Origin: a virus
Lineage: Duplodnaviria; Heunggongvirae; Uroviricota; Caudoviricetes
Length of the DNA stretch: 51,994 nucleotides
Reading direction: 5' to 3' (one strand)
Virus record (IMG/VR): IMGVR_UViG_3300045988_149344
Of the stretch, positions 3,871-49,859 are shown piece after piece. The position numbers and the translations under genes are program-made. Position 1 is the stretch's first letter. Every line of letters starts with the position of its first letter. The notes below the pieces were generated by a model. That model was not told where the DNA came from and did no database searches. It saw only the letters and a list, made by a program, of their open reading frames with translations.

Positions 3871-6800
3871 TCAACTCTCGCGTAGTCATTCATCAACGGA
3901 TCATCAATTGACAGTGGTACCGTGCGCATAACGCCCGGCTGAGGCGTGCTGACCTTTACGACAGTTCCCTGGCCTTTCGCCGAGTCTTTGGTGTGCTCTT
4001 CAATCCTGGCAAGCAATGAGGTCATCTGCGCAAACAGCCGCTTCGTTTCACCATCAAGTGAAACGGTATTATCAGCCAACTGCATTGTCGGCTTGGCACC
4101 GGAGCCGCCAAGGTCACTAATAACCTGTCCGTCTATCTGCATACGACCGGTTGGTTGCTGCAAATCGTTGGCGGCAGTCGTCACCTGGAACGTGGATGCT
4201 GGTTGAGGAGAATTATTTGAGCGCATTCCCCGGGCATTAATGAGTTTGTCATACAGTCCATCAATCCCCATTTGTGCGCCGAGCTGGTCAAAGTAACTTG
4301 AGTTGCTGGCCACTGGACGCGCCTCTTCAACTGGCGTCGGAGTATCAACATACACATTGCCAGCTGCTGTTGCGGTCCCATTTCCTCGTGCACGTTCTTC
4401 GAGGGTTCCCTGGACGACTTCTCGACGCATCCCCCGACCATTCATGAATTTGTTGACCAGATCGTTAACGCCAACAGCATTACCGATTTTGTCTACCAGA
4501 CCGCCCTTCTCAAACGGGCTATCACCAGGGGTAAACGCCAGGCCAGTAGACTGATCGATAACGGCGTTATCAGGCAGTGGTCCCCTCACTCCATATTGCG
4601 CCCCCCCCTGTGCTCCTGCCCCTGGTGTATAGATTTCACCACCTAAATAGCGAGCACGATGAGTATTGACCTTGATCGCGTACTCACGGTTTTCTTTCGA
4701 TAAGTCACCTGTGCCTTTTTTCCACCTATTAATAGTGCCAAACCCAGCGTTATATGCAGTGATGGCCTCGTTTAAGTCTCCATTGGCTTGCTTCAGATAC
4801 TTGCTCATGAGAAGAGCCGCAGCTTCTGCCGATTTCACAGGATCAAATGCATCCGGTTCCGATATCCCTGTCTCTTTACGAGCAATACTCGTGAACTGGA
4901 ACATCCCGAGTGCGCCACCACTTAACTTTCCATCTGGTGATCTTGTAAGCGGAGACTTTGCGTTAGGATCCCCTCCTGATTCAGTTGCAGCAATCGCGTA
5001 AAGAGTGCCTTCAGGAAGACCATATTTATTCTCTAGTTCAGCAAAATACGGAGCTAACTTATCGAGATTTGCCTTACCTTCAGCGCCAAGGCTTCCGACT
5101 TTTACATCTAAGTTGCCATTATTGTAGGTATCAGCAGCTTTCTGAATGTCATTCCCAGTGCCGGTGGTATTACGCGACGATGATGACGAGCTATTTTGTC
5201 CAATAGCTGAATCAATTTTCCGCACCGCGCTATTGCCCATTTCTACGGCATTTGCATTGATAATCTGATTGGCAGTTTCTTTAACTGTTTTATTGCTATC
5301 TTTCGCCGTGTCCAGTGCCGCATTTATCACGCGGGTAGCAATATTAGTCTGTTTAGCATCGGATTCAGTTTTAGAATCAGATGTCTCCTGGTGGCTATTA
5401 ACCGGAGCTTTTAACTCTGGAGTGATTTCTTTTGCATTAGCCTCGCCGATCGGATTGGGTATTTTTGATACAATCATTGCCGCAGGGGTATTTTTAACGG
5501 CATCAACCGCTGCATCTAATGCTTTACCGGGTAAATTTTTAACCCCATCCCAAATATTACCAGCCGCCTCTTTAATGTGTTTCCCTGGGTTCTTAATGAA
5601 ATCAATTGCACTATCAATTGCATCACTGAAAACCTGTTTCAGGTTATCAACAGTAAAGAAGTCTTTGATGGCATCCAGCTTTTCAAGCAGCTTATTAGAT
5701 GTATCGCTAAACCATGCTGAAACAGCATCACCAATCTTTGCTGTGTAATCTTCGAACTTGGTAGAAATGGTGTCGCCAAGGTTAGAAATATATGTTTCTA
5801 AGTTGGTAATCCCACTATCAATGGCCTGGGCAATACTTTCCGTCGAAAATGATTGCAACATATTGCCGATATCCTCAAATCCAAGTGATTTGAGAACCTC
5901 ACCAATGGCGCTGCTAATACCAGATACCAGTCCCCCCATATCAAGAACATTGGCTAACGTATAAGCGGCTTTTTGCTGGAATGATGGCTCTTGTCCTGAT
6001 TTAAGCCCAAACGCTCGACGTTGCGCTTCTGTATCATTCCAACCGGTTACCGCATCATAAATACCTCCAGCCACTGTGCCGACTAAGGGAATTGCGCGTA
6101 ACGCCCCTTTACCAACTGCCTTTAATCCAAATTTACCTGCTGCCCGGGCAGCCAAATCTCCACCTTCATGGGCGATAGTCTTCTTGCCACCACCGCGTAG
6201 CATTCCTACAAGTTTCTTTGCCCCCAGAGCGCCAAAAGCGAGTGCTCCAGCTTTTTTCAGCATGCCACGCCCCATTAACAACGACGCGACGCCACCGGCC
6301 CCCTTCCCTAACAGGCTAAATAGTTTGGACAGCAAGCCGCCCTTCTTTTTCCCGGTGTTTTTGGCTATCTGATCAAGGGCGCTGAGAATCTTGTCATTGC
6401 CCTCTTTAATTTCGCTGGTCTGCTCCTGAAGTTCCTGAACCGTCCGTTTTTGGGTGTTAACCTGAACGACATCGGCACTATTTTGCGATTTACGCCTAAA
6501 AAAACCTTTTCTACGGCTGTTATCGTCATTGCCACGAATCACATCGGCAATAGACTTTCTGGCACCATTAAGCGATCCACCAACTTCTTTTGATATCCCG
6601 CCAAGCTCCTTCCCTGCTGCCCACAATGGACCAGCAACGGCATAACCTAACGCATCGACGGCACGAGTCTCTGAAGGGTTACCTATGCCTTCAGCTACTT
6701 TTGACAGTTTTTTTAATAAACCTGATTCAGCATTTAGACGCTCATCATCCTCTTTGCGCCTGGCCTTTTCAGCACGTTCAGCACGGGCATCTTCCGCTGC

Positions 6801-48429: not shown

Positions 48430-48936
48430 TTGAGTATTTTCAATAAACATGCACACCAGGAACGTCCGTATATCGTCATAGTCGATATTGATGGAACAAT
48501 ATCAGAGGCAACTGAAGACAGACTGCATTTGCTTCCGCCACCAGGTAAAGGTGCATTAACAAAGGACTGGAACGAGTTTAATCTCGCCTGTGACACCGAT
48601 ACTCCCATCACTCCGGTTATTGATATGGTGCGCCAGTTATTTAACGTTTACACGGTCTGGTTTGTAACCGGGCGCTGTGAGATCGCAAGGGATAAAACAC
48701 GAGCCTGGCTGCGGAAGTACGTAACAAACGGGGCTGAGCCTTTGCTATCTATGCGTCCTGCCACCGATGACAGAAATGACGGTCCAGCAAAGATTGATCT
48801 CCTGAAGAAAATTGGTCTAAGTAAAATTGCGTTCGCGCTGGAAGATAAGATTGAAGTGGCGCGTGTTTTCAGGAGTCACGGCGTACTTACGTTAATGGTC
48901 AGGGAGTATGAAAACGCGCTTCTCCACCAACAATAA
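48430..48936 (+). CDS. HAD-superfamily phosphatase-like protein (168 aa), TTG start
   Basis: Motif I VIVDIDGTI; GAGGAGGG ribosome binding site 4-5 nt before TTG at 48430. Confidence 0.5.
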   Translation: MSIFNKHAHQERPYIVIVDIDGTISEATEDRLHLLPPPGKGALTKDWNEFNLACDTDTPITPVIDMVRQLFNVYTVWFVTGRCEIARDKTRAWLRKYVTNGAEPLLSMRPATDDRNDGPAKIDLLKKIGLSKIAFALEDKIEVARVFRSHGVLTLMVREYENALLHQQ

Positions 48937-48952
48937 TTGCTCTAATAAATAT
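48936..48952 (+). promoter_or_regulatory. C1 operator (16/17) overlapping the stop of the HAD gene
   Basis: ATTGCTCTAATAAATAT. Confidence 0.6.
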
Positions 48953-49034
48953 TGATTTTTAAAACAGAGAAAGTGAAAATAAAAACATGCCGCAAGGCGC
49001 GGCATGTATCCAATCAATCACAGGAGCTGAAAAT

Positions 49035-49121
49035 ATGAACACGGCATTCAAAATCATTATGGCCGCGATCTATTTCTGGCTGTTCTCTATCACTTTTGGC
49101 GGCATCGTCGCGCATGGGTAA
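49035..49121 (+). CDS. 28-aa hydrophobic peptide (MNTAFKIIMAAIYFWLFSITFGGIVAHG), not in ORF track
   Basis: AGGAG ribosome binding site 7 nt upstream of the ATG; single predicted TM helix; lies between a C1 operator and the next gene. Confidence 0.3.
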   Translation: MNTAFKIIMAAIYFWLFSITFGGIVAHG

Positions 49122-49130
49122 GGGGGATGC

Positions 49131-49859
49131 ATGAAAGGCGAAGTGAAAGAGCGCGGCATGATTTTCAACGATGAGATGGTCCGAGCCATCCTCGAAGGAA
49201 GGAAAACGCAGACGCGGCGGATAATGAAAAATCAGCCTGCGGAAGTTGGTCCAGAAGCACCAGTGATGGTTAGGGAAATTGGTGCAGGTTTTCAGTGGTA
49301 CGGGGCTGATGGTGTAAGCAGTGTTTTCAATTGCCCCTTTGGTATCGTCGGCGATCGAATTTGGGTTCGTGAAACATGGGCGATATTAGGCAATGAAGAT
49401 GGTTGCAGTGTGGACTGGAACGACAACCTTTGTCGTGGCGATGAGAAGAACGCAGCAAGGATTTATCGGGCCAGTTGTGAGCAAAAGCCTGGTGATTACG
49501 GTTTATGGTCGATACCCGATGATGCCGACTGGAAACCTCACACTGTGAATGAAAAGTTTGATGGTGGGTGGCGTCCATCAATTCACATGCCGCGATGGGC
49601 ATCACGCATCCTGTTGGAAATTACCAACGTGCGCGTTGAGCGGTTGAACGATATCAGCGAATGCGATGCAAGGGATGAGGGCGTTCCGCCTGCTGGAAGT
49701 TTGCTTCCTGATCACCCGGGAACATTCCTTACTCCCAAGGGGGATTTCGCAATGGCCAAGGTTGCGTTCCAGCGTCTGTGGGAATCCATCTATGGTGAAG
49801 AAAGCTGGAACGCTAATCCCTGGGTGTGGGTAATCGAGTTTAAGCGCATTCAGGAATAA
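49131..49859 (+). CDS. Conserved prophage protein, possibly ASCH-like (242 aa)
   Basis: N-terminal MIFNDEMVRAILEGRKTQTRR is a motif I associate with ASCH-type prophage proteins; weak call. Confidence 0.4.
   Translation: MKGEVKERGMIFNDEMVRAILEGRKTQTRRIMKNQPAEVGPEAPVMVREIGAGFQWYGADGVSSVFNCPFGIVGDRIWVRETWAILGNEDGCSVDWNDNLCRGDEKNAARIYRASCEQKPGDYGLWSIPDDADWKPHTVNEKFDGGWRPSIHMPRWASRILLEITNVRVERLNDISECDARDEGVPPAGSLLPDHPGTFLTPKGDFAMAKVAFQRLWESIYGEESWNANPWVWVIEFKRIQE

Follow-up and report, generated by a model that had tools for sequence, protein, structure and literature searches.

The window, by which we mean the whole stretch of 51,994 nucleotides analysed here, belongs to a P1-like phage-plasmid, as revealed by sequence comparison. 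At the locus under study it shares 99.9% identity with Escherichia phage vB_EcoM-813R1 and 97% identity with P1. A 194-bp gap separates the gene pap (48430-48936, plus strand) from a pmgT-like gene (49131-49859, plus strand), and a 28-codon open reading frame, termed ORF28 (49035-49121, plus strand), sits within this gap. The homologous gap of the P1 reference genome (NC_005856) contains the operator OpmgT and two predicted promoters, without any CDS. The upstream neighbor pap encodes a 3'-phosphatase that resembles the phosphatase of polynucleotide kinase-phosphatases, as indicated by its open reading frame, the P1 annotation and profile matches to Pfam HAD_PNKP (7.8e-12) and to a polynucleotide kinase family of PHROGs. 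It closes the C1-controlled pmgR-pmgS-pap unit. Upstream of pmgR, two C1-operator-like sites form an inverted pair (46795-46811 on the plus strand and 46844-46860 on the minus strand, three mismatches each), which correspond to the annotated P1 operators OpmgRa and OpmgRb (Op86a/b), so that pmgR-pmgS-pap is also under C1 control. The downstream neighbor, supported by its open reading frame, the P1 annotation and profile matches, encodes a protein of 242 residues in PHROG 874, the function of which is not known. Neither pap nor pmgT is required for plaque formation (PMC10695390). In the record of vB_EcoM-813R1 (ON470617.2, locus L002), the product names seem to be shifted: the pap CDS is named PmgS and the pmgT-like CDS is named 3'-phosphatase, 5'-polynucleotide kinase.

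ORF28 starts with an ATG at 49035 and ends with a TAA at 49119-49121, followed after 9 nt by the ATG of the pmgT-like gene, the Shine-Dalgarno sequence of which (GGGGGA) lies in between. Its own Shine-Dalgarno sequence, AGGAG at 49022-49026, is located 8 nt 5' of the ATG. The encoded peptide, MNTAFKIIMAAIYFWLFSITFGGIVAHG, has a best 19-residue Kyte-Doolittle mean (KD19) of 2.10 over residues 7-25, forming one hydrophobic segment of transmembrane length, and ends in ...IVAHG without a charged tail. The reading frame with its exact translation, the good ribosome-binding site and the single transmembrane helix are all as described in the first-pass annotation. A census of every ATG start opening a frame of 20-60 residues, in all six frames of the whole window, yielded 492 short ORFs; ten of them have a Shine-Dalgarno sequence and eight have a KD19 of at least 2.0, but ORF28 alone combines the two features, compared to ~0.16 ORFs expected under independence. 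The same ORF is present, identical in sequence, in the reference P1 genome (NC_005856, 84392-84478), where it is unannotated.

The C1 operator OpmgT, formerly Op88 (ATTGCTCTAATAAATAT, 48936-48952, plus strand), overlaps the stop codon of pap, and ORF28 begins 83 nt past it. It matches the pattern ATTGCTCTAATAAATTT at 16 of 17 positions, and the single-mismatch site coincides exactly with a protein_bind feature at the homologous position of NC_005856, in agreement with the earlier assignment of a C1 operator upstream of ORF28. Sites with at most three mismatches number nine in the window against 0.27 expected, and OpmgT itself is kept as ATTG(C/T)TCTAATAAATATTG in the distant clade of Cronobacter phage JK004. 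We infer C1 repression at OpmgT from a remark in the P1 record equating the site with the former Op88. Two predicted sigma-70 promoters of the P1 annotation overlap the operator (48937-48980, plus strand), namely P2pmgT (-35 at 48937-48942, -10 at 48960-48965) and P1pmgT (-35 at 48952-48957, -10 at 48975-48980). Their coordinates were carried over from P1 (locus x = window x - 46899), and a simple consensus scan of the locus called neither of them. As ORF28 sits directly behind a C1 operator and a promoter, its expression upon derepression is a reasonable expectation.

The leader of ORF28 contains a stable hairpin of 9-10 bp at 48985-49007 (ACATGCCGC-loop-GCGGCATGT), which ends 27 nt before the ATG. 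The pairing is kept across lineages, for instance GGCAGTCAC/GTGACTGCC versus GGCGGTCGC/GTGACCGCC: JK004-type loci (L090, L175 and L091 to L093) have a hairpin of another sequence at the same position, with compensatory changes that preserve the pairing. All lineages share a common leader plan, consisting of the operator, an A/T-rich stretch and a hairpin of 6-11 bp located 26-31 nt before the ATG. The predicted folds leave the Shine-Dalgarno sequence and the AUG unpaired in five of five lineages; as a whole, the mRNA is not significantly more stable than shuffled sequences (z = -1.28). Between hairpin and start codon lies the block CAATCAC-A-GGAGC (49015-49027, plus strand), which includes the Shine-Dalgarno sequence. 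Neither AGGAG nor the ATG varies among 84 P1-type sequences, and the block is identical in the JK004 clade, as CAATCAC-N-GGAGC, while the flanking leader has diverged.

The hairpin might act on either strand. Five substitutions in the stem (48993 C>T, 49000 C>T, two in L092 and one in L175) give G.U pairs on the plus strand and A.C mismatches on the minus strand, which leans towards a plus-strand RNA element; however, the energies of the whole hairpin favor neither strand consistently. Read on the minus strand, the 10-bp stem is followed by TTTTTATTTT and has the look of an intrinsic terminator, the T-run being confined to the E. coli-type clade and absent from the JK004 clade. Such a terminator could stop antisense read-through from convergent cargo, such as hsdR, into the pap/pmgS operon. 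In addition, the 10-mer GCGCGGCATG occurs both in the 3' arm of the hairpin (48997-49006) and in codons 7-10 of the pmgT-like gene (49151-49160), with 0.18 copies expected in the window. A role of this direct repeat as a long-range pairing switch was considered and put aside as unlikely, as the repeat is not kept in the JK004 clade and is probably due to chance.

To follow ORF28 among its relatives, we aligned the window with 85 ORF-covering sequences (phage records, IMG/VR contigs and two genome contigs), 86 in total. The conservation in related phages that had been put forward as a check is borne out, the frame being intact in 84 of the 86 sequences; the remaining two, L062 and L063, turn to unrelated sequence at codon 20. 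Some database records annotate a form of 44 residues that starts at 48987 (the "membrane protein" of SJ46, WP_001312275.1) and thus includes an in-frame extension of 16 codons (48987-49034, plus strand). This extension is not a conserved coding region: it is interrupted by Q3* (CAA>TAA) in nine loci and by Q9* in three, carries a GG indel in four haplotypes, and has accumulated eight nonsynonymous against two synonymous changes. Moreover, the ATG at 48987 lacks a Shine-Dalgarno sequence and lies within the hairpin arm, and in JK004 an in-frame stop is found 8 codons 5' of the ATG. Given this decay by stops (12 loci in all) and an indel, we rejected the 44-residue form; the ATG at 49035, preceded by the Shine-Dalgarno sequence, is the conserved start, as the first-pass annotation had chosen. 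Very probably, ORF28 does encode a protein, beginning at the 28-codon rather than the 44-codon start. Its description as unannotated holds for the P1 reference, which has no CDS here, but not for every record, as in a sample of 37 full-length RefSeq E. coli records four annotate a CDS at the matching position, and some records carry the 44-residue form.

The 3' end of ORF28 coincides with a mosaic junction zone (49092-49130), where the relatives change to unrelated cargo. Breakpoints are found at 49092 (L062 and L063), at 49120 (giving peptides that end in AHGY...), at 49125 and at 49130. The cargo 3' of ORF28 is the pmgT-like gene in 60 loci, a convergent EcoR124-type hsdR gene in 20 loci, and other genes in the rest. 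It had been stated that ORF28 precedes a next gene, which is true of the window with its pmgT-like gene but not of about a quarter of the relatives (~20 of 86), where a downstream gene on the same strand is missing. ORF28 is kept irrespective of the cargo, and the ORF, its Shine-Dalgarno sequence and its ATG are intact in all 19-20 loci of the hsdR class. P1-like phage-plasmids have eight known variable regions, among them the pmgT-humD segment (PMC9603915). ORF28 forms the conserved head of this cargo-swapping region and marks the left edge of an exchange hotspot.

Of 5,426 complete E. coli genomes, 564 carry the region from the operator to ORF28 (194 bp) at nearly its full length, as do 589 plasmids of PLSDB. 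A stump of 84 bp, lacking the first two codons of ORF28 (49042-49125; 4001-4084 in L088 and L089), is found by itself on hundreds of IncF plasmids, cut by IS1 on the left and adjoined by a convergent EcoR124-type hsdR gene on the right; ~320 of the 5,426 complete E. coli genomes have this relic only. We considered the 84-bp piece as an independent element and rejected it in favor of an IS1-truncated relic beside hsdR. The stump and hsdR together have the appearance of a type I restriction cassette that was acquired from the cargo hotspot of P1.

Variation within the E. coli-type clade turned out to be uninformative with respect to coding. Eighteen distinct changes were found in ORF28, eight synonymous and ten nonsynonymous, nearly all of them C>T or G>A. 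The third codon positions of ORF28 are rich in C and G. The naive pN/pS of 0.35 for the ORF28 frame compares with 1.24 and 0.67 for the two other frames and with 0.20 for pap. However, random re-placing of the 18 mutation types with their spectrum preserved gave a mean of 7.1 synonymous changes, compared to the eight observed (P = 0.41), and no stop codon arose in 46% of the trials (P = 0.46), so that the lack of stops is unremarkable. The naive ratio was accordingly dropped as a proof of selection; diversity is too low for the E. coli-type clade alone to show coding selection. An apparent nucleotide hyper-conservation of ORF28, with an overall diversity (pi) of 0.015 against 0.044 in pap, was likewise discarded, as pap is the outlier: at third positions, ORF28 (0.028) matches the backbone level of pmgS (0.026), whereas pap reaches 0.10. 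This diversity of pap, about four times that of the adjacent pmgS (47095-48357) among P1-like elements, suggests a separate history of pap, for example recombination or older alleles. The last nine codons are the most variable part of ORF28, and several loci of the hsdR class carry G22D or G23D/S, the aspartates placing a charge inside the helix. Amino-acid changes are found in 11 of 19 loci of the hsdR class compared to 2 of 59 of the pmgT class; relaxed selection in the former is a possible explanation, but the synonymous changes go up in parallel.

A tblastn search with PmgS identified a sister clade represented by Cronobacter phage JK004 (69.5% identity). Past pap, JK004 has in order the operator ATTGCTCTAATAAATATTG, a differing hairpin, the block CCAATCAATCACCGGAGC, an ATG, and a 53-codon ORF, MHLIFKLAITAFYAWMLTVVITSFKPDANMKASRYLGNLSASYDCDQQGDDSL (MZ188976, complement 64633-64794; 5943-6104 in L090), which is preceded by a Shine-Dalgarno sequence and conserved in related contigs. 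Contigs L091 to L093 and L175 keep pap, the operator, the hairpin, the CAATCAC-N-GGAGC block, the ATG and a transmembrane ORF, and one of the JK004-type loci came from a scan of metagenomes. Protein search revealed three clusters of the 53-residue type (P0022 to P0024), which are 66-98% identical and the contigs of which share the synteny ppp-pmgQ-pmgR-pmgS-pap followed by the small ORF. Searches for remote homologues (a combined k-mer and HMMER search, a HMMER scan in full, tblastn against plasmids with the 53-residue form as query, and scans of IMG/VR and of metagenomes) returned only P1-type copies and five JK004-type loci; a Citrobacter plasmid encoding a Pap of 36% identity was set aside, as it is not syntenic. 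The JK004 record itself annotates, as gene_94, just a 38-residue version from an internal ATG (5988 in L090), the conserved start being at 5943. In the JK004 clade, the stop codon of the 53-codon ORF overlaps the ATG of the next gene (ATGA). This next gene (6101-6415 in L090; 3159-3473 in L092) encodes a 104-residue winged-helix protein that weakly matches MarR_2 and the "Ren-like exclusion protein" of PHROGs (E about 1e-5), a hint that the early operon of that clade has exclusion or regulatory functions.

The 53-residue protein is under purifying selection, with dN/dS values of 0.22-0.39 in frame, compared to 0.55-2.4 off frame (Fisher p = 0.0006-0.03). Comparison of ORF28 with the 53-residue forms over codons 2-19 showed 14 of 18 identical second positions, against 6-7 of 18 first and 5-8 of 18 third positions (78% versus 28-44%; p = 0.003-0.01), a bias towards second positions that indicates selection for a hydrophobic helix in the ORF28 frame. 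Residues M1, K6, A11 and W15 are invariant between ORF28 and the 53-residue forms, the motif WLFS is shared with P0023, and BLASTP of ORF28 against P0023 gave E = 3e-4 in a single comparison. One refutation proposed at the outset was variation like that of synonymous sites; on this point the E. coli-type clade is undecidable (8 of 18 synonymous changes versus 7.1), and the distant clade, by its codon-periodic divergence and its low dN/dS, favors coding. Altogether, the cross-clade comparison strongly supports the coding of ORF28.

Both proteins occupy the same slot after pap and a C1-type operator, with the same leader anatomy and an N-terminal transmembrane helix. AlphaFold predicted the 53-residue form as a confident helix over residues 2-23, followed by a tail or second helix of low confidence. 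The two proteins differ in their C-termini. The JK004 protein has a conserved hydrophilic tail of 30 residues (SFKPDANM.AS..LGNLSASYDCDQQ), the similarity stops at about codon 19-21, and ORF28 ends past the helix with an unrelated C-terminus of 8-9 residues. This new C-terminus still fills out the hydrophobic span of ~20 residues. ORF28 appears, from these alignments, to be a C-terminally replaced form of the 53-residue protein, and with the conserved tail missing it could be a truncated remnant.

The resemblance to known families was examined in several ways. ORF28 has no match in Pfam, NCBIfam, PHROGs, PADLOC or the PDB, and an HMMER search of 1.8 billion representatives returned only its P1-type copies. 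A literature search retrieved no Ribo-seq, proteomic or other expression data for ORF28. A sigma-70-like promoter was looked for on the minus strand from 49500 to 49007 without success; by eye, there is only an isolated CATAAT that lacks a -35 element. Rfam gave on that strand a match to GcvB of 20.3 bits, which is below the gathering score of 42 and taken as noise. The first-pass annotation had likened the peptide to small membrane toxins from its size and composition; neither an antisense promoter nor a known family was found to go with them, which leaves "toxin" unproven. A specific toxin or depolarising activity of ORF28 is at most conceivable.

We weighed three other explanations of the locus. 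The ORF might have arisen by chance in a purely regulatory leader made up of the operator, the promoter and the 5' UTR of the pmgT operon. Its shortness, the inability of within-clade data to separate coding from non-coding and the fact that most pipelines skip ORF28 are all consistent with this, but we consider it very unlikely in view of the pairing of a Shine-Dalgarno sequence with a transmembrane segment that is unique among 492 short ORFs, the positional homologue under purifying selection with codon-periodic divergence in the ORF28 frame, and the retention of the leader block and the ATG amid a diverged leader. It is even more improbable that ORF28 is the toxin of a system similar to type I toxin-antitoxins, in which a minus-strand antisense RNA ending at the hairpin (49007-48985) would pair with the Shine-Dalgarno and start region and block translation. 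The toxin-like size and composition of the peptide, the canonical-looking terminator, the fold of the minus strand from 49125 to 48975 (z = -2.05) and the sub-threshold GcvB match could be read in its favor. This candidate was nevertheless rejected, as the minus strand has no recognizable promoter from 49500 to 49007 and the terminator is not kept across clades, the T-run being lost in the JK004 clade though the hairpin persists. Further points against it are the five stem substitutions, which pair as G.U on the plus and face as A.C on the minus strand (though the energies favor neither strand consistently), the GcvB score far under threshold, and C1 repression, which already provides an off-switch.

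A more serious contender, though still an unlikely one, regards ORF28 as the 5' stump of the 53-residue gene, kept as a platform of promoter, leader and translation initiation and as a left homology arm for cargo exchange, with a peptide that is maybe translated but inert. This would fit the loss of the tail at the end of the homology, the clustering of junctions at the 3' end of ORF28, the closeness of its stop to the next start (9 nt here, overlapping in the JK004 clade), the null result of the within-clade selection test, and a C-terminal third that accepts G22D and G23D. By contrast, the ORF, its Shine-Dalgarno sequence and its ATG persist in all loci with a convergent hsdR gene, where there is nothing to couple. 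In addition, the hydrophobic character has been held in a codon-periodic manner since the split from JK004, and the new C-terminus completes the hydrophobic span rather than interrupting it.

We favor, with a probability of about 0.6, that ORF28 is a real gene for a single-helix membrane peptide, the first cistron of a C1-repressed PpmgT unit with an accessory role in lytic growth. We propose that in the lysogen C1 bound at 48936-48952 would shut the promoter, as suggested by the P1 annotation. Upon infection or induction, an mRNA would start at PpmgT a few tens of nucleotides upstream of ORF28, joined by read-through from PpmgR, and would present the conserved leader hairpin and then the unstructured CAATCAC-A-GGAGC ribosome-binding region. 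Translation from the ATG at 49035 would be efficient, and the peptide, given its hydrophobicity, is predicted to enter the inner membrane. By descent it would be a protein of the 53-residue ancestral type with its C-terminus replaced, the homology ending at about codon 19-21, just where the junctions of the P1 clade begin. Its likeliest role would be accessory, non-structural and at the level of the membrane during lytic growth, directed at the envelope of the host or at one of its membrane proteins; secondarily, it may serve as a well-translated leader for whichever gene follows. A stronger version, in which ORF28 is an active membrane effector freed only by C1 derepression at the head of the hotspot and might depolarise or remodel the inner membrane so as to set the timing of host shut-off, exclude superinfecting phages or kill cells in which repression is lost, seems to us improbable. 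If true, it would be a repressor-gated functional analogue of type I toxins that was missed in a model phage, although ~10% of complete E. coli genomes carry it.

P1, a model phage for 70 years, is a workhorse of E. coli genetics, and P1-like phage-plasmids often carry resistance or defence genes. ORF28, probably a real gene for an uncharacterised small membrane protein, would as a repressor-controlled peptide missed in the reference genome add a gene to the early programme of P1. Its delimitation as a conserved unit would correct the 44-residue database annotation. It also pinpoints the start of the pmgT-humD cargo region, which aids the reading of mosaicism and of cargo capture, such as the hsdR cassette with its ORF28 stump on IncF plasmids. 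A membrane-active peptide would offer a new and compact tool or target; an inert one would be a clean case of a gene stump retained as a platform for expression and recombination.

The nearest counterpart of ORF28 is the likewise uncharacterised 53-residue protein of the JK004 type. Among other known systems, holins can be set apart by the neighbours of ORF28, which are pap and the pmgT-like gene or hsdR, and by the lack of an endolysin cassette and of a charged C-terminus. Type I toxins such as Hok, TisB, Ibs, ShoB, Ldr, ZorO and DinQ are, like ORF28, tiny peptides with one hydrophobic helix and few charges that are borne on mobile elements. ORF28 shares with them the small hydrophobic peptide; it differs in the lack of a family match and of an antisense promoter or antisense RNA unit, and in an apparently transcriptional control by C1. 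Small regulators in the inner membrane of enterobacteria, of the MgrB, MgtS, AcrZ and PmrR type, have 28-50 residues and one transmembrane helix, and bind larger membrane proteins. ORF28 could plausibly act in a similar way on a larger membrane protein, although it has no sequence kinship to these proteins and, unlike them, is phage-borne and repressor-controlled. Another parallel is provided by class 1 integrons, where ORF-11, located 5' of attI, is a short leader ORF that boosts translation of the exchangeable genes downstream. Both loci present a promoter, a leader and a short ORF before a position of gene exchange, and the stop codon of ORF28 in the window lies close to the next start, that of its JK004 counterpart overlapping it. 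However, no site-specific recombination site was seen at ORF28, which encodes a conserved transmembrane helix and not an arbitrary peptide, and translational coupling cannot explain everything at a locus where one quarter of the cargoes are convergent. ORF28 thereby joins the many small membrane peptides encoded by phages, as a new and as yet unnamed member.
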